A stretch of 64,000 nt of DNA from a virus (IMGVR_UViG_3300013713_000001:32001-96000), one strand, 5' to 3'. Shown: positions 50,161 through 61,892, counted from the stretch's first letter. Numbers and translations are program-made. The notes: a model not told the origin generated them from the letters alone.

Positions 50161-50589
50161 CTATGGATTACCAAACTGTTCTTCGCTAAAGGTTAGGCGC
50201 CGTCCCGCCCAATTAGCAAATAGGAAATCTGCTTTTAGGACGGCGTACTTATCAAACTCATAGGTCAAGGACATATGGGGGAGATACTCCGGATAAACCG
50301 GTACATAACCTCGTTCTTTCAGACGTTGGTGTTCTTCTACCAGGCCTGGCGAGATCAGGTGAAACACCAGGCCTGTACCCAGGACTTCAACGTTCTGGAT
50401 AGTGCCCTCATAAACCTTGTTAGCGTTTACAGAGCACAGCGGCGCCGAGAGATCTCGTTCGTCATACATCAACGTACAGTGTAACGGGTACTTGGGCATT
50501 GCAAAGCCGGCTTGCACCAACAAGCCTAGGATTTCACTTCTTTCCGGATCCTGGAGGAGGACCTGGACGTAACCTGTATCACTGGCCAT
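50161..50589 (-). CDS. 2H phosphoesterase, T4 gp57B/Acb1-like
   Basis: HCTLMY and YLPHMSLTY (two HxT/S motifs); GYV N-terminus; LVFHLISPGL..H..L...G. Confidence 0.75.
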   Translation of the reverse strand: MASDTGYVQVLLQDPERSEILGLLVQAGFAMPKYPLHCTLMYDERDLSAPLCSVNANKVYEGTIQNVEVLGTGLVFHLISPGLVEEHQRLKERGYVPVYPEYLPHMSLTYEFDKYAVLKADFLFANWAGRRLTFSEEQFGNP

Positions 50590-51512
50590 TCTGGCTCCTG
50601 GCGACCGCGCTTAAAGAGGTTGAGGACCTTGTTCCAATAAAATCCTTTGGACCTCAGCTTCTTGTGGGACGCGGTAAACCGGGAATCGTTGTAGGGGAGG
50701 GTAAACGCAGCAGCCTGTACATGACCGCCACCTCCGAACCGTTCAGCAATAACATTTACCGGATAAGCATCCGAACGCAACGAATAATAACGACTGTCTC
50801 GACCATTTGCATAAACCGCTACTGGGTAACCGTGGTGTTTCAGTGCATCCCCAAGATCGGATGCAAAACAGTAGTTCGCGTTAACGGCAGCAAACGTAAC
50901 ACCATCAATATCCAGCAAGTGAAAGGTCTTAGCAATCTTGGCAACCTCTAGTTCCTGTTTCCGTAAGAGCGCGTCACCGATTTGCTTTACGGTATAGGGA
51001 TCTGTTGCCATCAAGGTGTCAATACTTTCAACAGTCAGCGGGTAACTAAAAGCAGCGGCAGTCCAGCTCTTGGTCAAGGGATTTTTGAACTTCCACAAAT
51101 CCCGATCCTGTACCAACTCAATACCGAGAGGAGGTTTCACAAGCGGGTAGAAGTAATCCCAAGCCATGCCAGCGCCCGAACGCTTCATATCAAAGATAAC
51201 GTTCGTTTCGTATTCACTGCTCGGATCCAAGTGCGTCCGCAGGTCAGCACAGACTCGCTCAGCAGTGTCGTGGTGATCAAGAACCACCAGGTGACACATA
51301 CTTGCCAATTCAACCATTTCAGGAAGGGGGTAGCTGAAGTCCACAACAAAGACATTCTTCCCTTCAAGACCCTCTGGGAGTTTGCTCTTGTACTGGGCGG
51401 AGATAAGTTTCACATTTCCGTCAAAGTACTTCCAAACCACCCAAGCTGCTGCGATGCCGTCCAAGCAGTTTGCGTGGTAAATGCAAACATTCTTGTGCTC
51501 ATGCATCGGCAT
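50526..51512 (-). CDS. DHH/DHHA1 family phosphoesterase
   Basis: YHANCLDG, VDFS, LDHH, DRDLW, SLRS, GGGGH; start MPMHEHK. Confidence 0.9.
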   Translation of the reverse strand: MPMHEHKNVCIYHANCLDGIAAAWVVWKYFDGNVKLISAQYKSKLPEGLEGKNVFVVDFSYPLPEMVELASMCHLVVLDHHDTAERVCADLRTHLDPSSEYETNVIFDMKRSGAGMAWDYFYPLVKPPLGIELVQDRDLWKFKNPLTKSWTAAAFSYPLTVESIDTLMATDPYTVKQIGDALLRKQELEVAKIAKTFHLLDIDGVTFAAVNANYCFASDLGDALKHHGYPVAVYANGRDSRYYSLRSDAYPVNVIAERFGGGGHVQAAAFTLPYNDSRFTASHKKLRSKGFYWNKVLNLFKRGRQEPEWPVIQVTSRSSSRIRKEVKS

Positions 51513-52245
51513 CGTCCTGCTCGCGGTTCTCCGGGGCATCAGAAGCACCAATGATGTCAATGCAACGCCACACACCCCAGGCCTCGCCGTTCTCTTCACG
51601 GAGGCGGTGCGCTTCTTCAAAGGCCAGGGCCTTCGTCTTCAGGCGGGTGGGTGAACGGGTAAAGACGGTGGCTCCGTTCTCAAAGACCTTACCGATGATG
51701 TAACTGCCGAGGGGCTTGTGATACGGCTCACGGAAGTCAGCACGGCGGGCCTGGGTCATCTTCTGGTGGTAGAGGTTGAACCCAAACCAGAGCAGACGGA
51801 TACGGCTGTTGATATAACGGCCATTGGCGTCTTTTTCGAGCTCCATAGGGCTAGCCCCTACATCTGACTCGAAGAGGACGTTTTCGAACTCTTCCTGGAT
51901 GGTAGTTGGTGCTTCGTGGGGGCGACCAGGTGTCGGGAGTACATCAGCCACTACTGCGGGTGCTACTGTATCCAGGGTTTCCGGTTTTTCCGCAATAACC
52001 AGAGGAACCGCAACGATGTACGGATCCGTGTCAGTCGATGGCTGGTAGAGCGCCAGATCACGGGACTCGTCCAGGTTGTCACCAGCCTGTTCGACAAACT
52101 TGTCAACGATCTCACTCAGGGCGCCTTTGACATCAGGACGCTTGAGACCACGGTTATCAGCCAGCTCCCTGGCACGTTGGTTGACCCAGGTGGAATCGAC
52201 AGGGTGCAGGGCCAGCGGAAGGTTTTCAGGAACAGTCACAGGCAA
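51499..52245 (-). CDS. Hypothetical multi-module protein
   Basis: 248-aa ORF, AGGAG RBS. Confidence 0.65.
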   Translation of the reverse strand: MPVTVPENLPLALHPVDSTWVNQRARELADNRGLKRPDVKGALSEIVDKFVEQAGDNLDESRDLALYQPSTDTDPYIVAVPLVIAEKPETLDTVAPAVVADVLPTPGRPHEAPTTIQEEFENVLFESDVGASPMELEKDANGRYINSRIRLLWFGFNLYHQKMTQARRADFREPYHKPLGSYIIGKVFENGATVFTRSPTRLKTKALAFEEAHRLREENGEAWGVWRCIDIIGASDAPENREQDDADA

Positions 52246-52811: not shown

Positions 52812-53303
52812 TTATATCGCCCCTATCATCCGCAAATACTCTGTATCTTGTAATTCTGGTTTAGCGCAGGCATCTGAAGCCAGTTTGTCTGCACGTTCGT
52901 TGCCGAGAACGCCCGAGTGACCCCTCACCCAGTGAAACTTAACCTTGTTCTCTTTCAGCAACTCGTTAAGGACGATGCAGAGGTCCCGGTTCTTGACCGG
53001 TTGCCCCGTGTTGTAAGTTAGCCAGTTGTTCCTGGCCCAACCCCTGATCCACTTCGTCGCGGCTTTGATGGTGTAATCCGAGTCAGTGTAGATATCGACC
53101 TTGATGTTAGGACCGAACTCTTCCAGTGCTGTGATTACTGCCAACATCTCCATTCGATTATTGGTTGTATAATGGTAGCCCTTACTCAACTCGGTCACCG
53201 TATCACCGAGTTGAGCAAAGATGCCATAACCACCAGGACCTGGGTTGCCCTTACAAGCACCATCCGTATAGATTACATAATGGTCTTGCTTGGCTTTGGA
53301 CAT
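52812..53303 (-). CDS. rnhA: Ribonuclease HI
   Basis: YTDGACKGNPGPGG, TTNNRMEM, TDS, WVRGHSG..GNERAD. Confidence 0.97.
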   Translation of the reverse strand: MSKAKQDHYVIYTDGACKGNPGPGGYGIFAQLGDTVTELSKGYHYTTNNRMEMLAVITALEEFGPNIKVDIYTDSDYTIKAATKWIRGWARNNWLTYNTGQPVKNRDLCIVLNELLKENKVKFHWVRGHSGVLGNERADKLASDACAKPELQDTEYLRMIGAI

Positions 53304-53315
53304 TTAAACCTCGTG

Positions 53316-54614
53316 CTAGAAAGTTGCTCCGTCAATATAGATGGTCTGCTCGTTTTCATTTGCTAGATAATCAAACGCACTTTTATCCGGATAGCTCAGG
53401 TGCGCATTACCCTTTGGGCTCGTGGAGAGCATAAGGTCTTCTCTCTCCTTAGGTGGGTATTTGACCGTTAGCAGTTCATTGTTGATCAACCGTCGAGCGG
53501 TATCCAGCAGGTTGATCATGCTGCAACGGGAGGTAATCGAGTCGACCAGGTAGTCAACAAGGCTCTCTTCGACTGCACTGGGTTCAACATCACCAAAGAA
53601 GGCCTGGCAAGCCTTACGGCGAATCGACCGACGGGAATCAGGGTTACGGAACGACATGGTAAAGAGAACGGTATACTGCTGGTCGAAAACATTGGCGCTT
53701 TCTTTCGGAACGAACAGAGCCACGTTATTCTCGTCGACCCGTACCAGGTGAGCAGGACGTGGCGCGCCGATATTGATAACTGTGAAGTCATAACGGCTCG
53801 TCAAGTAGATGCCCGGGCAGTCTTGACGGAAGTTTTGGGAATTGAACCTAATTCCTTTGAGGGTCACATTACCTGTCAAGAAGAACCCACAGCCGATCAG
53901 TCTGGAATCCTCAATGTCAATCTTCCCCTCTCTGAAGTTACAGTGTCGAAGGTCAGAGTTGTTAACAGTGACGAAACTGTCAGGAACGACCCCGCGAACG
54001 AAACTACAATGCTCGATAAGAGAATCGCAGTAATACCCCGAAGGAAGACTAGTCCCCTGGAAGTTTAGCGTATCCGCATCTACTCCACTCAGCGACAGAC
54101 GACCTTCGGGACGGCGCACCACGCCATAAAAGCCATTGCGCACGATCGACTCGTCCCACGCATTTTCTGTACTGTCAATCCCCATCAAGACTGACCGACC
54201 AGCAAAGTAATCAGACTTGCTATGGGAGTCGATCAGGCAAATAACCACCAGGGGGTCTTTTGTTCCGTACGGAGTATAACTGGAGAGCCCTGACAGATCC
54301 AGAGACGAGCTTTCGTCAGCCAGGATGTAATGGAGGGGTGCACGGAGCCCGTTTCGTTGCTCGATATCGTGCAGGTACCGGTATACCTTTAGAACAGGGT
54401 AAGCTCCCTTAGGTCCTATACCTGGAACGCATCGGATCAACGGAAATCCGTTATGACTCCACCACCCATCAACCAGTTCCGCTTCACCGATAGCGGTTAA
54501 GATCTCACCATTGACCGCAATCACGCCAGGCTGACCAATGATTGGAGTTTCCTCAACAACAGCAACTTCTTTGCTAACAGTCTTTGCTTCAGTCTTCTTC
54601 GTCATCTTTTCCAC
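53316..54614 (-). CDS. Hypothetical protein with beta-helix-like repeats; paralog of 54667
   Basis: Pentapeptide-like central repeats; YLVDSITSRCSMINLLD. Confidence 0.7.
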   Translation of the reverse strand: MEKMTKKTEAKTVSKEVAVVEETPIIGQPGVIAVNGEILTAIGEAELVDGWWSHNGFPLIRCVPGIGPKGAYPVLKVYRYLHDIEQRNGLRAPLHYILADESSSLDLSGLSSYTPYGTKDPLVVICLIDSHSKSDYFAGRSVLMGIDSTENAWDESIVRNGFYGVVRRPEGRLSLSGVDADTLNFQGTSLPSGYYCDSLIEHCSFVRGVVPDSFVTVNNSDLRHCNFREGKIDIEDSRLIGCGFFLTGNVTLKGIRFNSQNFRQDCPGIYLTSRYDFTVINIGAPRPAHLVRVDENNVALFVPKESANVFDQQYTVLFTMSFRNPDSRRSIRRKACQAFFGDVEPSAVEESLVDYLVDSITSRCSMINLLDTARRLINNELLTVKYPPKEREDLMLSTSPKGNAHLSYPDKSAFDYLANENEQTIYIDGATF

Positions 54615-54666
54615 CTTTCAACAAAGCTGAGTAACCCCACAAGGGGTTACTCAGTACACCGGTTAA

Positions 54667-56109
54667 TTATTCGAAGAACGAGGAACTTTCCCCTTCCGAT
54701 GAGATCCCCATCTCTTCGGCCACGTCCTCAACTTCATCCAAGAGGACGATCATCTTCAATCGAGAAACAACTTGGTCGACCAGGTATTGGAGGATCTGCC
54801 CCTTAACCGTTTCGGTTCCCTGGTGACCTCCGTAACCAGGGAACCCTGGTCGCTCCCATGGCGGGGTATAGCCGAGAGGACCCGGACCCGGTCCTGGGAT
54901 CAGACCAAACGGTTTCAATACCCCCTTACCTTTCTCACCGAGCAATTCCTGGAGCTGCTCCTCGATGACATGCCGAGGTGAATCGATAGGGAGTGGTTTC
55001 TTTTCCGCGGGCAGAGACCATCGATCCGTGGTGAGATACACTTCAGTTGGGGAAGTTCTGATCATCATCAGTGCACGATCGTGCCGGCTCAGGTAGTCGA
55101 GCTGAGTAAAGGCGAAACGGTTAGTGACGTGAATACTTGGAACGCGCCAGTGCTGGCCATTCAACCCACCGACGCCACGGATCAGGATATCCTTCTCCGT
55201 CTCAGCAACAAACTTCTCTGCCGTCAGTTTGCTGACACTAACCTTACCCCCGTTAATCACGCACTGGGTCAGGTAACTGTTGGTTACCTTTACCGGACTG
55301 GGGTTACTTGGCTTCAACCCCCCAACGGTCGACTTGGTGATATGGGAGTTGCTATAGCGACCGCCTGACAGGATCGAGTCGACGACCGAACAGGCCAGCA
55401 GGTAGAGGTTGTCGTATTCCTGGCGTTTGCTGATCCCCGGGCGGTGAGGACCACTAGGACCCCAGCCGTTACTGGCCCCTACATCCCCCGAAACAATCAC
55501 GAGGTGGCTCTTGTTGAGAACGGTGTTCTTCACCGCCACGTTGACCAACGAGCAATCGCCAAGGAAATGGTTATCCATGCTGGCCGCGTTGATCATGATG
55601 AGGTTACCGCCACGAGCCGTGCGGAAGTAGAAGTCATCGCTCAAGACAAACGAGGAACGGTCGTCCATCAGCAAGTGGTATTTGACTCCACTAAAGCTGA
55701 AGATAAACAACGACATCTCAGGGAAGTCAAAATTGGTGGGGTCTTCCCATGGGGCATTAGTGGACTGCGTCCGGGTGTACTCGTTATAGAGCACCTGGTG
55801 GGGTAGCTGGAAGTGCTGGTCTTCGTAAACGTAGACCTCGCCCCCTGGACCAGTGGGTTTCAGCCCGGTGGCCACGGGACCAATGCGAGTCCCTGCAATA
55901 ACGACAGTAGGTCCCTTTCCGGGAAGGAGGGCTTCTGTCTTACCGCCATAGCGTTGAGCTGACTCGATCACCTTTCCCAGGCGACCTCTGGGCTTCATAC
56001 CCAGTTCGTCGAACTGCAGGACGATGTCTTTGGCGATTGCTTGAGCCTCGGCAACCTGCGGCTCCTCTTTTGGTTCCTTGGTGTCCTTTACAACCTTCTT
56101 ATCGGCCAT
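54667..56109 (-). CDS. Hypothetical protein; paralog of 53316
   Basis: YLVDQVVSRLKMIVLLD; same central repeats. Confidence 0.7.
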   Translation of the reverse strand: MADKKVVKDTKEPKEEPQVAEAQAIAKDIVLQFDELGMKPRGRLGKVIESAQRYGGKTEALLPGKGPTVVIAGTRIGPVATGLKPTGPGGEVYVYEDQHFQLPHQVLYNEYTRTQSTNAPWEDPTNFDFPEMSLFIFSFSGVKYHLLMDDRSSFVLSDDFYFRTARGGNLIMINAASMDNHFLGDCSLVNVAVKNTVLNKSHLVIVSGDVGASNGWGPSGPHRPGISKRQEYDNLYLLACSVVDSILSGGRYSNSHITKSTVGGLKPSNPSPVKVTNSYLTQCVINGGKVSVSKLTAEKFVAETEKDILIRGVGGLNGQHWRVPSIHVTNRFAFTQLDYLSRHDRALMMIRTSPTEVYLTTDRWSLPAEKKPLPIDSPRHVIEEQLQELLGEKGKGVLKPFGLIPGPGPGPLGYTPPWERPGFPGYGGHQGTETVKGQILQYLVDQVVSRLKMIVLLDEVEDVAEEMGISSEGESSSFFE

Positions 56110-56112
56110 GCC

Positions 56113-58101
56113 TTAGTGCTCCTTGATGTACTTGATGAGGGATTCAATACTCGCATACTTGTTGACGTCCAACGTAGGAATAGAGTACTGGGTTGCTTTT
56201 AACAGTTTGCTCTTGCTAGCACGGTCACTGATCACCAGGTATTTGCAATCGACGGTAAGCTTATCAGAGAGCTCTATACCGCGTTCTGCAAAGTACCCCA
56301 CCAGTTCATCATGGGTCTGATCAAACGAGCCCGTAATCGACACCTTGAAGCCTGTAGTGTCTGCTGGAGGGAGGGTCAGTTCGATTTCTCGAGCCAAGGC
56401 CTCAAAGTTCTCATGGAACGTTGGATTCGCCATCGTGTTCACAACTGCCATGGCAATGCCGTTAGAGATCCCCTTAACCTCGGTCAGGAACCGCACGTTT
56501 GTAAACAGATGCTCGAGCAACGCAATGCGCTCATCCTTGCCAATACTGAAATCGGCAACAAAGTACACATTACTGGCCAGGGCATCGGCAATGCGTTTCG
56601 AGAGGACCACCCCAACATCCGGGAAGCAGAGGGCCTTGATAAAGCGGTCAAGCGTCTGAATACGCGCCCCGTCGATACGTTCTTTCAGATCCGTCGAGAT
56701 AAGGTTCAATGCCCCTGTATTCAGGCTGAACAGATCTGCCGGCTTGGTGAGGTAGCCGCGGTGGACCAGGTCTGCCACTACCACGGGACCCAACCCTTGG
56801 ATGTCAAGACCAAACTTGTCACCCATCAGGATCGTGCGGTGGATCAACTGCGCAGGGCACGCAGAGACGTTGTTACAGACGAGTTCTGCGCTGGTCTTAC
56901 CGATCCTTGTCTCGAGGATAGAAGAACAGCTAGGGCACTCGCCAGGGGCTTCCAGAGGCTGTGCATCTCCCGACTCAAGAATACCGCTGAGTACGGGGGT
57001 GGTTCGGTTGGTACGCGAGATCGAAACAACGTCACCTGCCCCCAAGCCGAGTTCCATGAAGTTCCCGTAGTTATCGAGCGTAACACTCGAGTACAGCACG
57101 CCACCGATTTCAACGGGGGTAAAGATCGCCTTCGGGATCACACGTCCATAACCAGAGGTACTCCACTCGACGTCCTTTAATACGGGAGTACCTTCCGCTG
57201 GGGGGAACATGTACGCCACGCTCCAGCGGGGATGCAGGTTGCTGACCCCAACCTCTTGCTGCAAGGCGAGGCTGTTCAGCTTCACCATAATCCCGTTCGA
57301 AGGGACCAGGTCACTGCGCATGTTTTTCGAGATGTAGCTAGCCGACACCTCTGGCGGGGTATCAAACTTGAACTCTCGCAGCTTTTCTTTCAGTCCCTGG
57401 TACGTGGTGGCCCCGAAAGGCTCACTTGACCAATGTGCAGAGAACTGCAGGGTATTCAGGATACGTTGGTCCAGGTGTTCTGGGTGAGCACGTACCCAGC
57501 CACTCACGGCACTGCGCGGGTCTCTCTTTTTCTCACTCAGGGATTCGTTATAGGTCTCGAAGTCATGGATCCCGATCCAGGCTTCACCACGGATCTCAAC
57601 CGTGTCCAGCATGGTGTCGATCTGGATGGGAATAACACCTTTAACAAACAGGGGATGGGCATGTACAACTTCTTCCCCAACCAATCCAGCACCGCCGGTG
57701 GCCATGCCGGTGAGGAGACCTTTGGTGTAGATCAAGCGGAGACCGATGCCCTCGAGCTTCGCTTCGTAGATGAACTCAGTGCCCTCAGGGAACTTGCCAC
57801 GAAACGCCTCGACTTCTTCTTCGCTGTAGACCTTGCGGACGCTTAGCATCGGCTCCGTGAAGCGGATCACGTTCAGAGGTCCTGCATTGGGGATCTCGAT
57901 CGGGACGGGGTTACTGACGTGGGTTTCGAACTGGTGACCCAGTGCTGGATACTGATCACACAGCCCCCGAAATTCTCGCTCCAGGTTATCGAATTCTTCG
58001 TTCGACAGCTCGGGTTCCTGTTTGACATGATACAGCCAGCTGTGATGCCGAAGGGCTTGATCCAGCAGTTTCATGCGTTCAATAGGGGAATTCTTAGCCA
58101 T
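56113..58101 (-). CDS. ligA: NAD+-dependent DNA ligase homologue with degenerate active site
   Basis: Ia, adenylation, OB, Cys4 Zn finger, HhH and BRCT domains present; KLEG, RGE, PR, MVK. Confidence 0.85.
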   Translation of the reverse strand: MAKNSPIERMKLLDQALRHHSWLYHVKQEPELSNEEFDNLEREFRGLCDQYPALGHQFETHVSNPVPIEIPNAGPLNVIRFTEPMLSVRKVYSEEEVEAFRGKFPEGTEFIYEAKLEGIGLRLIYTKGLLTGMATGGAGLVGEEVVHAHPLFVKGVIPIQIDTMLDTVEIRGEAWIGIHDFETYNESLSEKKRDPRSAVSGWVRAHPEHLDQRILNTLQFSAHWSSEPFGATTYQGLKEKLREFKFDTPPEVSASYISKNMRSDLVPSNGIMVKLNSLALQQEVGVSNLHPRWSVAYMFPPAEGTPVLKDVEWSTSGYGRVIPKAIFTPVEIGGVLYSSVTLDNYGNFMELGLGAGDVVSISRTNRTTPVLSGILESGDAQPLEAPGECPSCSSILETRIGKTSAELVCNNVSACPAQLIHRTILMGDKFGLDIQGLGPVVVADLVHRGYLTKPADLFSLNTGALNLISTDLKERIDGARIQTLDRFIKALCFPDVGVVLSKRIADALASNVYFVADFSIGKDERIALLEHLFTNVRFLTEVKGISNGIAMAVVNTMANPTFHENFEALAREIELTLPPADTTGFKVSITGSFDQTHDELVGYFAERGIELSDKLTVDCKYLVISDRASKSKLLKATQYSIPTLDVNKYASIESLIKYIKEH

Positions 58102-58158
58102 TGAAATTTCTCCGTTGCACTATAGGGGTAGGGGCCAGGGGTTGCCCCCTGACACCTG

Positions 58159-58638
58159 TTAGGCGACTTCCTTCACCTTGTTCTTTGCAGCGTGGTAATC
58201 GTTCAAGACACGAATGTCTTGTATCACTTGCTTAACCTCTTCCTCAGAGGCCGACGCAGCGGTCAATTGTGAGAACTCGAACCGCTTCTGGATCAAGAGC
58301 GTGAGGTTGTTGAACACGCGCACTGGGTAGCCCACGTCCGGGTATTGGACGGTGTTGAACTCGAAGTACGGGTTGAACTCACGAACCTCAACGCGTTGGG
58401 AATCTTTGCTAAGGACCACCAGCGTATCCGTCATGGGATGGTTGGTGACCGCATGGGTCTCACAGAGAGCTTCGAAATGGCGCTTTTCCAGCCATACACT
58501 TAAAACCGGGCAAGAGTCACGGAGTCCCTGTAAAACCAACGCCGAAGAACTACCCACCACAAACGCCTCATGGGGAATCTCTTCGGTAGCACAGACGGTT
58601 CCCAAAAGTACTGCAATGTTTTCTGCTTTAAGAGTCAT
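58159..58638 (-). CDS. Nucleotidyltransferase-like protein lacking DxD
   Basis: VVGSSSALVLQGLR; paralog of 58643. Confidence 0.55.
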   Translation of the reverse strand: MTLKAENIAVLLGTVCATEEIPHEAFVVGSSSALVLQGLRDSCPVLSVWLEKRHFEALCETHAVTNHPMTDTLVVLSKDSQRVEVREFNPYFEFNTVQYPDVGYPVRVFNNLTLLIQKRFEFSQLTAASASEEEVKQVIQDIRVLNDYHAAKNKVKEVA

Positions 58639-58642
58639 TTGC

Positions 58643-59092
58643 TTATGCCATTATGCGAGCTACGTGCTGCCGCTCTTTTACTAACTTTTCCAACGCGTCG
58701 ATGTCTGCAAGATCAGCAACCCGTTGACTTTCATCGCGTTCCATTACCTTCGAGAGGTAGCGTTTCTGCGTGAGCAAGGCACTTGGACTGTACGACCAGA
58801 CCCCGCCCACACAAACAACCCCACAGTCGGTATTGAGAACACCCAACTCTACATCTTTATCGAACTTCAGAAGTTTTTCTACGCCGGCAGCAGCGGGAGA
58901 GACCCGGAATTTGTTGCTCCGCTCATACAAGCGAAACACGTTTTCTGGAATACCTGCATCCAGATCATCCGTTGTCTCCCGTACCCCTAAGAGTACCAGT
59001 GCACTCGTCGACGACAACACCACATTCTGGGCTGGTTCGTCGAGTTCGTTCAGCAGTACTCTGTAACGTTCAATAACTCCCGCCTTGTCCAT
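58643..59092 (-). CDS. Pol-beta-superfamily nucleotidyltransferase-like protein
   Basis: SSTSALVLLGVRETTDDLD; start MDKAG. Confidence 0.6.
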   Translation of the reverse strand: MDKAGVIERYRVLLNELDEPAQNVVLSSTSALVLLGVRETTDDLDAGIPENVFRLYERSNKFRVSPAAAGVEKLLKFDKDVELGVLNTDCGVVCVGGVWSYSPSALLTQKRYLSKVMERDESQRVADLADIDALEKLVKERQHVARIMA

Positions 59093-59102
59093 AATTGTCA
59101 CC

Positions 59103-59396
59103 CTACATTGATGGGACCAACCCGCTAAGTTGCTGCATGATGTTACACACGGAGCGTTCCACAAACATATCTTGCGCAACGCCGTACAACGAATAACTCA
59201 CTGGAGCAGTACCGAACGCATCAAAGGTTACCAATGCCTGGTTACGACCGCCAAACGCAATGATAGCGGTCAATTCGTTTTGCGGACTCCGTGCAAAGTT
59301 GATGGTGACTTGGCCTTCGCCGCCTGCGTGCTGAGGCACGATCATCAACCCCCCGTTGGGGGCCATTACTGCTGGATGAAACTGTTGGGATACCAT
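59103..59396 (-). CDS. Hypothetical protein
   Basis: 97 aa directly after promoter. Confidence 0.6.
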   Translation of the reverse strand: MVSQQFHPAVMAPNGGLMIVPQHAGGEGQVTINFARSPQNELTAIIAFGGRNQALVTFDAFGTAPVSYSLYGVAQDMFVERSVCNIMQQLSGLVPSM

Positions 59397-59412
59397 TGCC
59401 TGAATCCTGCTA

Positions 59413-59423
59413 ATAATGTAGGT
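59413..59423 (-). promoter_or_regulatory. Early promoter variant
   Basis: TTCAAACCTACATTATTAG, core identical to the 37405 copy. Confidence 0.7.
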
Positions 59424-59429
59424 TTGAAA

Positions 59430-61892
59430 TTAGTTGATGGTGTTGTTCCGGTTGGGTTCCGCTGGTAGCGTCAAGCCATCGTGTTTCATGGCGACCACAT
59501 TCGGGTTCGAGAACACACCAAAACTAGAAAGATAGTGGCTAACACAGAAGATCTGCCGCGCGTCTTTCTTTTGAGCCAACTCTCGGACAAAGTTGAAGAA
59601 ACGAGTTCGCTTAACCTCGTCGAGGTTGGTCCCCACTTCATCCATAACTAACGGGAAGTACCCATGGTAGATCAACGCAGTAAGACGCACCGCAAAATCA
59701 ATGATACCAGTCTGACCCAAACTGCAATCAGAAATGTCCGGAACCGGCTTTGAGTCACCTACAACAACCGGAAACTTGTAGGTCAAGTCACCGTTAGCTT
59801 TGTTGCAAGGTTTCACATAAAGTGGCGTGTTCCAAACGCTTTGGATCATGGCGTTTGCGTTACCGCAAAAGGTCTTGATAAAGTCAGTCAACAGTTTGCC
59901 GATAAGTCCCTTGTTTGGGCAGAGGCGGTCCATCCATGTTTCGACGATAATGAGGCGCTTACGTAAGCGTTGAACTTCCTCATGAATCGACTCCACAACA
60001 GAGGACAGCGAGCGACTGTTAATGATGGAACGGAGGTAGTCTTCTTTCTCTTCAGTCAAGATGCTGATACGTTCGTCCAATTGTTTACGGAACTTCACGT
60101 ACCCTTCATCGAGCAGACTTTGGAAGATCTCCTCCTTTAGCGCCTCGAGCTTGGCGAGGTCTGCTGCGTAGTTACGGATGATCAAGAGTCGGTTGTTAAA
60201 CGTCTTCAAACGACGGTTGTAAAACCTCAACCGATTCTGATCCACCACAAGTTCACGCTCCCAGTTCTCAACGAACGCTGCAACGTCCAAGACATTGTCG
60301 CGGTTCATAAGTCCTATACGGGTCTCTATGAGATCTTTCTCTTCCAGGAGTGACTCTATACGCCGTGTAGCGTCAAAACGTCCCTTAAAGGCTCTCAGGG
60401 CGTTCAGGATGTTGGATATCTCATTCTTGCCGACGTTGAACTCCTTCACCAGATAGCTCAGGCAAGGAACATCGCTTCTCAGACGACAGAACTGGTGCAA
60501 GGCCACCATTGACTCGTACCAGCTCCGATCATTGTCGAGGCGGTCAGCCAATACATCGCGTTCCTTCTCCATTCGTTGAATTGCTTCACCCCACAGAGTT
60601 ACGTCTTTGCGAAGAGAGAGCACGTCTTTATCGTTTACCCCTACTTTGAAGTTACGCTTGCAGTCTGGACACTCCACCGACTCAGCATTGTCATAATGCT
60701 TAAGCTGGTGGTTGGCTGCAGAGATCTTTCCTTCAAACTCCCGGATGCGGTTGTTGACCTGGTTCAACTGGTTTTCGAGCTGCTTGTACGTCGCCCCGTT
60801 GATCGAGGAGTCGTTTGCATTAACAACACAGTGGAGCTGAGCCACAAACGAATCGTAAACCAGTTCCAGTCCTTTGAAGTCGTAGCCTTCTTCACCAAAC
60901 ACGGGTTGGTCAGCCAGAACAGTGGTATGTTCTTTGATCGACTGTTTCAACTCGTTGATCTCGGTCTCCAATTGGTCCGCTTGGTTCTGGAACAGGAGGG
61001 GATCTTGGATGTATTCCTCAACCCCTTCTAACAGACCGGCGTGTTCACCAATGGTGTGTTGAAGGGACGAGATGTTTTCTTCGTAGTTACTGATCAACCG
61101 CTCGGTGATCTCAATGCCTTCAACAAGTTCGTCTTCGGTGTTGATAAACCCGCTGACCTTGTTTACCGTCAACGCGGTGGAAAGCATCTCGAACTCTTCA
61201 ATCTTGCGACGAAGCAAGGGGTTGATCTTGTACTCTTCCAACGAACCCCGGAGCAGCAGGGACTTACGCAGATCTTCATCAATGAACTTGATACGGTTCT
61301 CAAGTTCTTCAACCCCACATTCGGTAATGCGTTTCAGCTTTTCGCTTTCGTCCGCATAACGAGAGACCTGGTTCTTTAACACCGCTTTGAGTTCGTTACG
61401 CTCAGTTTTCAAGCGGTTGAATACATTCATCGCCATGCTCGTATCGTTGGGATAGAGCCACAGCAAGATCTCTTTACGTCGGGTAGGGGTCAGGTTGCTA
61501 AAGAGGTCATACACCTTTAGCCCTGACAGGAACCGTGCACGAGGACGGTCCAGTTTAAAGTGGGTCCAGCACAGCTCTTTCTGAGCCATAAAGGTCCCGC
61601 CTTTGTTTAGTTCTTCACCGTTCAGTTTAAACGAATGACCATCGGCTACGCCGGTACGTGAATCGAAGATGTAGTGCTTACCTTCGATCTTCCACTCACC
61701 GTATTTACGGCCGCCGGTATCAAAATCAGCGCTTTCGGGTGGGAGTTGGTTAACCTCTTTAAGAATACTGGTTTTACCTACACCGTTCTGAGCCACGAAC
61801 AAGTTGACCATGTGCGCAAGGTCCAGCTCAACATAGGTAATACCGTTTTTCTGCAGCGGTATATAGTTTTCGAGGATCAGTTTAATCAGCAT
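59430..61892 (-). CDS. SbcC/Rad50-like SMC ATPase
   Basis: Walker A QNGVGKTS, coiled coils, CPDC zinc hook, signature CSLGQ, Walker B VMDE, VSH. Confidence 0.9.
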   Translation of the reverse strand: MLIKLILENYIPLQKNGITYVELDLAHMVNLFVAQNGVGKTSILKEVNQLPPESADFDTGGRKYGEWKIEGKHYIFDSRTGVADGHSFKLNGEELNKGGTFMAQKELCWTHFKLDRPRARFLSGLKVYDLFSNLTPTRRKEILLWLYPNDTSMAMNVFNRLKTERNELKAVLKNQVSRYADESEKLKRITECGVEELENRIKFIDEDLRKSLLLRGSLEEYKINPLLRRKIEEFEMLSTALTVNKVSGFINTEDELVEGIEITERLISNYEENISSLQHTIGEHAGLLEGVEEYIQDPLLFQNQADQLETEINELKQSIKEHTTVLADQPVFGEEGYDFKGLELVYDSFVAQLHCVVNANDSSINGATYKQLENQLNQVNNRIREFEGKISAANHQLKHYDNAESVECPDCKRNFKVGVNDKDVLSLRKDVTLWGEAIQRMEKERDVLADRLDNDRSWYESMVALHQFCRLRSDVPCLSYLVKEFNVGKNEISNILNALRAFKGRFDATRRIESLLEEKDLIETRIGLMNRDNVLDVAAFVENWERELVVDQNRLRFYNRRLKTFNNRLLIIRNYAADLAKLEALKEEIFQSLLDEGYVKFRKQLDERISILTEEKEDYLRSIINSRSLSSVVESIHEEVQRLRKRLIIVETWMDRLCPNKGLIGKLLTDFIKTFCGNANAMIQSVWNTPLYVKPCNKANGDLTYKFPVVVGDSKPVPDISDCSLGQTGIIDFAVRLTALIYHGYFPLVMDEVGTNLDEVKRTRFFNFVRELAQKKDARQIFCVSHYLSSFGVFSNPNVVAMKHDGLTLPAEPNRNNTIN

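Follow-up and report, generated by a model that had tools for sequence, protein, structure and literature searches.

A full-length LigA homolog with replaced catalytic residues in an EL-like jumbo phage: a probable pseudo-ligase

A 64,000-nucleotide stretch of viral DNA (IMGVR_UViG_3300013713_000001:32001-96000; hereafter, the window) was found to carry, on the minus strand at positions 56113-58101, an intact open reading frame (ORF) of 662 codons. Its product, P0001 (662 amino acids), is a full-length homolog of the bacterial nicotinamide adenine dinucleotide (NAD+)-dependent DNA ligase LigA, in which four catalytic residues were replaced while the residues defining the fold were kept. Judged from its sequence, P0001 is therefore probably an inactive ligase. 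The explanation that we favor, with moderate confidence, is that it is a retained LigA-derived pseudo-ligase, catalytically inert and structurally whole, which would serve a non-catalytic function in an early replication and repair module.

The LigA enzyme has been studied in depth and is targeted by antibacterial drug research; its catalytic residues are regarded as inviolable. To our knowledge, no natural full-length LigA is known in which four catalytic residues are replaced and everything else is kept, and a literature search revealed no description of a natural full-length LigA with four such replacements.

Results

Fold and domain architecture of P0001

The plus-strand reading of positions 56113-58101 contained stop codons throughout, which placed the gene on the minus strand. 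The original prediction, which had described the product as a full-length LigA homolog, was borne out by profile searches. P0001 matched the Pfam family DNA_ligase_aden (PF01653; 97.8 bits, 9.5e-28), as well as PF03120 (LigA OB domain) and PF22745 (Nlig-Ia). The match to phrog_3869 (NAD-dependent DNA ligase) covered the whole length of the protein (3e-127), and the match to E. coli LigA (2owo; 7e-51, approximately 28% identity) ran end to end over residues 11-646. The complete LigA architecture was present: domain Ia, the nucleotidyltransferase (NTase) domain, the OB domain, the Cys4 zinc finger, HhH and BRCT. In an AlphaFold2 model built with 48 homologs, all domains were predicted confidently (mean predicted local distance difference test score, pLDDT, 86.3), and the top matches of this model among PDB entries were LigA structures. 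The model and the fold search confirm the LigA fold only and are silent on activity.

Substitution of catalytic residues

P0001 was compared with 45 aligned phage and bacterial ligases, with 120 proteins from a word-index search and with 151 sequences, each representing a 50% cluster, from an exhaustive HMMER search. Substitutions are numbered as in E. coli LigA. It was found that P0001 departs from active LigA in five segments. Motif I, KxDG, reads KLEG, with K115 present and D117 replaced by glutamate; the TRGDG segment reads TGGAG (R136G); motif IV, DGxxxK, reads NGIMVK (D285N, with K290 retained); and motif V reads AYMF (K314M, encoded by ATG where relatives have AAR). In the OB domain, the loop RNNDVIPRLN of the relatives reads RTNRTTPVLS, which amounts to a change of 6 of the 10 residues, with R379 kept and D382R-V383T-I384T introduced. 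P0001 agrees with active LigA in motif III, where E173 (IRGE) is kept and R200 and R208 have their counterparts in R196 and R204 of P0001, and in the Cys4 zinc finger. P0001 also retains the residues of HhH (three glycines) and BRCT (four residues) that nearly all compared sequences share. P0001 combines lost catalytic residues with kept fold-defining residues and an open ORF, as would be expected of a pseudoenzyme.

The core replacements were found in P0001 alone. D117, D285 and K314 were invariant in all three homolog sets, with P0001 as the sole exception. Position 136 was arginine or lysine in all three sets (arginine in 149/151 and lysine in 2/151 of the cluster representatives) and was never glycine, the residue present in P0001. 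The 25 nearest relatives, which are 55-61% identical to P0001, keep D117, R136, D285 and K314, and D382R-V383T-I384T likewise occurred only in P0001. When 70 near-universal columns were scored in a leave-one-out manner, P0001 violated 11 of them, the members of the nearest clade (P0002-P0026) violated 0-2, and EL gp122 violated 2. On these alignments, the pattern of unique substitutions in P0001 is far beyond what chance would produce.

All of the substitutions listed in the original prediction (KLEG, TGGAG, NG, AYMF, N..FD, SGYG and TNRTTP) were present, and the alignment confirmed that the adenylated lysine, the Cys4, HhH and BRCT residues and the frame were intact. As evidence of inactivity, D117E, R136G, D285N, K314M and the OB loop stood; about half of the list, however, proved to be clade-wide or common. 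The 25 nearest relatives, all with intact core catalytic residues, also carry D32N, D138A/S, R333G-T334Y (SGYG) and G381N, and Y35F was found in 28/151 cluster representatives. Since such changes are found in ligases whose catalytic residues are intact, they provide no evidence for inactivity.

Each of the core changes involves a single base (GAC to GAG, CGN to GGC, GAY to AAC and AAR to ATG). Several codons of the OB loop differ from those of relatives at 2-3 positions, so this change is apparently not very recent. A compensated frameshift was considered as the origin of the rewritten loop and was rejected, since the other frames do not give back DVI.

The known roles of these residues indicate which part of the chemistry was affected. 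In NAD+-dependent ligases, water molecules link the single catalytic metal to the residues in motifs I, III and IV that hold it, and the lysine of motif V touches the phosphate of adenosine monophosphate (AMP) and changes its orientation (PMC7470946); the corresponding residues here are D117, E173 and D285 for the metal and K314 for the phosphate. The motif IV lysine and the motif I acid (here K290 and E113) read N1 and N6 of adenine, respectively, and domain Ia positions the nicotinamide mononucleotide (NMN) leaving group (PMC7470946). By alignment, then, the metal and phosphate chemistry is what is hit in P0001 (D117E, D285N, K314M and R136G), and the adenine and NMN contacts and K115 remain.

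Decay or retention of the ligase gene

Among the 27 columns that were invariant in all 45 other ligases, P0001 had changed 4/9 of the side-chain columns and 0/18 of those occupied by Gly, Pro or Cys (Fisher p=0.007). At sites invariant within the clade, 47/290 were changed in P0001 vs 16/306 in the comparably deep lineage P0003. This excess was concentrated in domain Ia, the NTase domain and the OB domain (36/181 vs 10/191, p=1.5e-5); for the zinc finger, HhH and BRCT, the difference was not significant (11/109 vs 6/115, p=0.21). The two halves were separated by conserved-site counts only, the raw distances per domain being uniform at 1.28x.

The ligase is a fast-evolving gene in all members of the group, since even relatives with intact catalytic residues are only 65-80% identical to each other. 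Identity of the window proteins to those of five syntenic relatives was 57-60% for the ligase, 85-86% for the SbcC-like protein and 81-85% for RNase H. The distance to four ingroup phages, taken relative to lineage L010, was 1.28x for the ligase vs 0.71-1.04x for six neighboring genes; the acceleration of the ligase in the window lineage is mild. With respect to the sister genome G001, there were 362 reciprocal best hits, with a median identity of 64%; the ligase, at 57%, ranks at their 36th percentile, and the overall divergence of P0001 is ordinary for its genome.

When random mutation of a relative's gene was simulated, the frame remained free of stop codons in 3.7% of runs at 11% amino-acid change and in 23% at 5%; the former figure speaks against neutral drift. 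Pairwise ratios of nonsynonymous to synonymous substitution rates (dN/dS, NG86) were 0.10-0.18 in all pairs, with dS saturated (1 to >3, and undefined for one pair). Taken together, the sequence comparisons favor a constrained fold and C-terminal half with unconstrained chemistry, and they are compatible with a fairly recent loss.

Search for another ligase

The window lies in a virus record of 229,109 bp that was rated complete by CheckV. The original prediction had called for a second intact ligase to be looked for in the genome. Six-frame profile searches of this record revealed none: PF01653 matched only P0001, and PF01068, PF09414 and PF09511 (ATP-dependent DNA ligases and Rnl1- and Rnl2-type ligases) gave no match. 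No ligase-like protein was found among the ORFs that lack a counterpart in G001. Among the genes missing from G001 are one for a DHH/DHHA1 phosphoesterase and one resembling a NUMOD4/HNH homing endonuclease (window 50526-51620 (-) and G000:165671-166645 (-)).

A LigA-type gene was present in each of PhiPA3, 201phi2-1, Goslar and G001, and the PhiPA3 ligase gp257 localizes inside the phage nucleus (PMC10643120). In contrast to these phages, the whole record of phiKZ (NC_004629), the model phage of the nucleus-forming group, searched in six frames, contained no match to PF01653 or PF01068; nick sealing in phiKZ must be performed by the host or by an unrecognized enzyme. A phage-encoded ligase is thus common but not obligatory in the nucleus-forming group, and the loss of its catalysis would be tolerable.

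Phage identity and operon context

A 666-amino-acid ORF (G000:185935-187935(-)) shared 48% identity with the 'nuclear shell protein' of EL, a chimallin homolog. The gene order at the ligase matched that in EL, RisingSun and FishSpeaker: an SbcC-like gene, a small ORF, two small paralogs, the ligase, one or two ORFs of unknown function and RNase H. The shell-protein homolog and the synteny with EL indicate that the virus is an uncultivated EL-like nucleus-forming jumbo phage. The features of the region are listed in Table 1.

Table 1. Features of the ligase gene and its surroundings; positions are those of the window.
Feature	Position	Strand	Remarks
SbcC-like ATPase, 820 amino acids, upstream neighbor	59430..61892	-	85-86% identical to relatives
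Early-promoter-like box AATTTCAAACCTACATTATT	59412..59431	-	Near match to a putative promoter annotated in phage EL at the corresponding position; operon begins here
97-amino-acid protein, first gene of the early operon, phrog_16812, function unknown	59103..59396	-	
149-amino-acid minimal Pol-beta-type nucleotidyltransferase-like protein, GS...DLD...DVE	58643..59092	-	Start taken from homologs
159-amino-acid NTase-like paralog, phrog_12854, acidic DxD motif lost	58159..58638	-	
Leader hairpin before the ligase ATG	58130..58157	-	
LigA homolog P0001, 662 amino acids	56113..58101	-	Intact ORF; Shine-Dalgarno sequence GGAG 9-12 nt before ATG
Domain Ia, residues 1-75	57877..58101	-	Y22, H23 and D36 equivalents kept; D32N clade-wide; Y35F common elsewhere
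NTase domain, residues 76-300	57202..57876	-	K115, E113, G118, E173, R200, R208 and K290 kept
D117E (E117 in P0001)	codon 57751-57753	-	Only in P0001
R136G (G136 in P0001)	codon 57694-57696	-	Only in P0001
D285N (N269 in P0001)	codon 57295-57297	-	Only in P0001
K314M (M298 in P0001)	codon 57208-57210	-	Only in P0001
OB domain, residues 301-384	56950..57201	-	Loop residues 363-372 at 56986-57015, RTNRTTPVLS
Cys4 zinc finger, residues 385-415	56857..56949	-	Four Cys retained: C389, C392, C409, C415
HhH, residues 416-575, and BRCT, residues 576-662	56116..56856	-	Smallest share of clade-invariant-site changes, 9% each
480-amino-acid ORF, function unknown, next downstream of ligase	54667..56109	-	
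432-amino-acid ORF, function unknown, distant paralog of the 480-amino-acid ORF	53316..54614	-	
RNase HI	52812..53303	-	Last listed in the same-strand block 52812..56109

The two NTase-like genes and the early promoter that had been predicted upstream of the ligase were located, as two Pol-beta-type paralogs and an EL-type promoter box. The expression signals of the ligase gene (the early promoter box, the conserved leader and the Shine-Dalgarno sequence) are intact. Both small upstream genes are tandem paralogs belonging to phrog_12854. The model of the 149-amino-acid protein (pLDDT 86.5) matched minimal Pol-beta-type nucleotidyltransferases such as TM1012, ANT(2'')-Ia, LnuA and MenT1. This pair of an active-type and a degenerate NTase-like gene directly preceding the ligase gene is kept in EL (gp120 and gp121) and in all members of the clade. 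The first of the pair can also be read from TTG as a 178-amino-acid ORF (window 58643-59179 (-)), which overlaps the 97-amino-acid gene; since its homologs start with MDK..., translation probably begins at the ATG at 59092.

A 58-nt leader (window 58102-58158 (-)) separates the NTase paralog from the ligase ATG. It is 88% identical in six phages (including L009-L013), whereas the flanking proteins are only approximately 57-60% identical. The leader contains the hairpin CAGGGG-GCAA-CCCCTG, and L010 has the same stem with another loop; the z-score of the hairpin was only -1.2. The leader may be a regulatory or processing element. A repeated promoter was rejected as an explanation of its conservation, as TATAGTGCA was not enriched within the window.

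The 480- and 432-amino-acid ORFs downstream of the ligase match each other by BLASTP (E 2e-7) and no Pfam family. Both diverge very rapidly, with 35-44% identity to relatives, and EL has one gene, gp123, in their place.

Discussion

A pseudo-ligase as the favored explanation

According to the explanation that we favor, P0001 would fold as a complete NAD+-dependent DNA ligase and would be unable to seal nicks. Sealing would have been lost because the aspartates that form the metal site in motifs I and IV, the lysine of motif V, and R136 were replaced and the DVI loop in the OB domain was rewritten. P0001 still has K115, the adenine-pocket residues (E113 and K290) and the residues with which domain Ia binds NMN; the zinc finger and the conserved residues of HhH and BRCT survive as well. 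Continued selection would then keep the protein for a non-catalytic function in the early operon, along with the SbcC-like protein, the NTase pair and RNase H. Its C-terminal half would most plausibly bind duplex DNA or partner proteins, and P0001 may still bind NAD+ or AMP. Nicks in this phage would be sealed by the host ligase or by an unrecognized enzyme. A conceptual parallel may be seen in Rhc: replication of phiKZ was reportedly rescued by a nuclease-dead form of this protein, an indication that replication enzymes act structurally in these phages (PMC13648698).

The pseudo-ligase proposed in the original prediction thus gains from the lineage-specific dismantling of the active site, the kept fold, the lack of a second ligase in the genome and the mild divergence, but the roles that had been assigned to it were overstated. 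A nick- or end-binding clamp is weakened as a role by the loss of R136 and K314 and by the rewriting of the OB loop with V383 and I384. In E. coli LigA, R333, T334, R379, V383 and I384 are reported to be essential contacts of the OB domain, with V383 and I384 touching DNA. For a decoy of defense sensors, the evidence points neither way: wherever the Avs5 paper speaks of ligase, it means a reagent or an unrelated host or tool enzyme (biotin ligase, tRNA ligase), and the activator of Avs5 is a different protein.

Several points weigh against a retained and inert protein. The predicted inactivity leans on mutagenesis of E. coli LigA, in which alanine at D117, D285 or K314 reportedly abolishes nick joining and function in vivo. 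The catalytic lysine K115 is kept, although a pure scaffold does not need it. The dN/dS values resemble those of purifying selection, but because dS is saturated they are not decisive. A gap of 3 nt separates the ligase stop codon from the start of the next gene, so translational coupling could partly keep the frame open. Finally, no relative more than 61% identical to P0001 was found in IMG/VR, in a set of 5.8 billion proteins or in JGI metagenome contigs; the lineage is represented by one metagenomic genome, and thus fixation and selection after the loss are not measurable.

Alternative explanations

The main rival explanation is that the gene is dispensable and on its way to being lost: an inactivating mutation was tolerated because the phage relies on another ligase, and the gene is now drifting, still unbroken. 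We consider this rather unlikely. The absence of a ligase gene from phiKZ shows that the function can be supplied otherwise, the conserved-site changes in P0001 are threefold those in P0003, only one genome is known, and at 5% amino-acid change nearly a quarter of the simulated genes (23%) were still stop-free. However, a drifting gene would hardly have spared all 18 invariant Gly, Pro and Cys columns, nor would its C-terminal half be expected to show no significant acceleration or its overall divergence to be ordinary for the genome. The multiply hit codons of the OB loop imply a long relaxation, and yet no stop codon or frameshift has arisen. Moreover, a comparable dead LigA paralog (gp332 of 201phi2-1, described below) is stably kept in two other phages.

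It is less probable still that P0001 is a working ligase, perhaps slow or specialized, in which other residues compensate for D285N, K314M and R136G. P0001 keeps its nucleophile and the greater part of the nucleotide pocket (K115, E113, E173, R200, R208 and K290), D117E is still a carboxylate, the protein is the sole ligase homolog in a genome rated complete, and its gene appears to stand in a conserved early operon with expression signals. Against this, none of approximately 270 homologs tolerates a change at D117, D285 or K314, the three positions at which alanine is reported to abolish the function of E. coli LigA; the alignment of P0001 shows no new lysine or arginine beside the lost residues; and the OB loop that contacts DNA was rewritten as well. 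An assembly or sequencing artifact is very unlikely: although P0001 was found on one contig only, at least 11 independent codon changes affect near-universal positions, several of them at 2-3 bases and with the frame open, and the neighboring genes are normal-looking and 83-86% identical to those of relatives.

Significance

If P0001 is inactive yet retained, the question of how nucleus-forming phages seal Okazaki fragments within a compartment from which most host proteins are kept out becomes testable, as does non-catalytic work of the LigA scaffold (DNA binding, recruitment of BRCT partners and NAD+ binding). Entries of the P0001 type, like gp332 of 201phi2-1, are labeled 'NAD-dependent DNA ligase' from homology alone.

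A broader idea, which can be put forward only tentatively, is that nucleus-forming phages exapted the LigA fold as a non-sealing, NAD+-responsive factor for DNA binding or scaffolding, with the adenine/NMN pocket and HhH-BRCT kept; gp332 would then be a second, independent case.

Comparison with known systems

P0001 shares with E. coli LigA the six-module architecture, K115, E113, G118, E173, R200, R208, K290, the Cys4 zinc finger and the conserved HhH glycines. It differs by D117E, R136G, D285N, K314M and the change of DVI to RTT in the OB domain, and it is predicted to be unable to perform adenylyl transfer.

The closest known proteins are the ligases of EL-like phages, namely gp122 of Pseudomonas phage EL (41% identity) and those of the uncultivated phages (P0002-P0026, 55-61%). 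P0001 is orthologous to them, lies in the same syntenic block and has the same clade traits (D32N, D138S/A, SGYG and G381N). All of these ligases keep D117, R136, D285, K314 and DVI, whereas P0001 does not.

A different kind of deviation was observed in the ligase of Klebsiella phage Miami (L006:489-2393) and in P0132, P0135, P0149, P0151 and P0191. These proteins keep the catalytic residues, and both of their adenine readers are swapped, E113 to S/T/M/A together with K290 to V/R/T. This replacement may reflect the use of a different nucleotide cofactor.

In phage 201phi2-1, gp332 (L023:1258-2196 (+), corresponding to NC_010821 243107-244033) is encoded directly upstream of the full-length canonical ligase gp333. 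It is a 308-amino-acid paralog consisting of domain Ia and the NTase domain only, with K115Y, D117N, R136K, E173V, D285S, K290T and K314L, and its ortholog in phage Viktualia is 72% identical. The conservation of gp332 in two phages indicates that dead LigA-derived proteins can be kept in nucleus-forming phages. Like P0001, gp332 is derived from LigA, belongs to a nucleus-forming phage and has an ORF that was kept after replacement of the catalytic residues. The two differ in that P0001 has all of the modules, still carries K115 and is alone in its genome, whereas gp332 has only domain Ia and the NTase domain, lacks K115 and E173 and stands beside an intact ligase.

A LigA module can bind NAD+ without any role in ligation: in an engineered NAD+ sensor, the Ia and NTase module of E. 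faecalis LigA binds NAD+ with a conformational change (bioRxiv 10.1101/2022.05.20.491061; PDB 8jyd). That sensor is an artificial construct; P0001 retains the adenine and NMN contact residues and may likewise bind NAD+. A natural degenerate paralog of an NAD+-dependent ligase is E. coli LigB, which is weakly active and lacks BRCT and two of the zinc-finger cysteines but keeps the nucleotidyltransferase motifs. P0001 presents the opposite arrangement, in which all of the modules are present and the motifs are broken.

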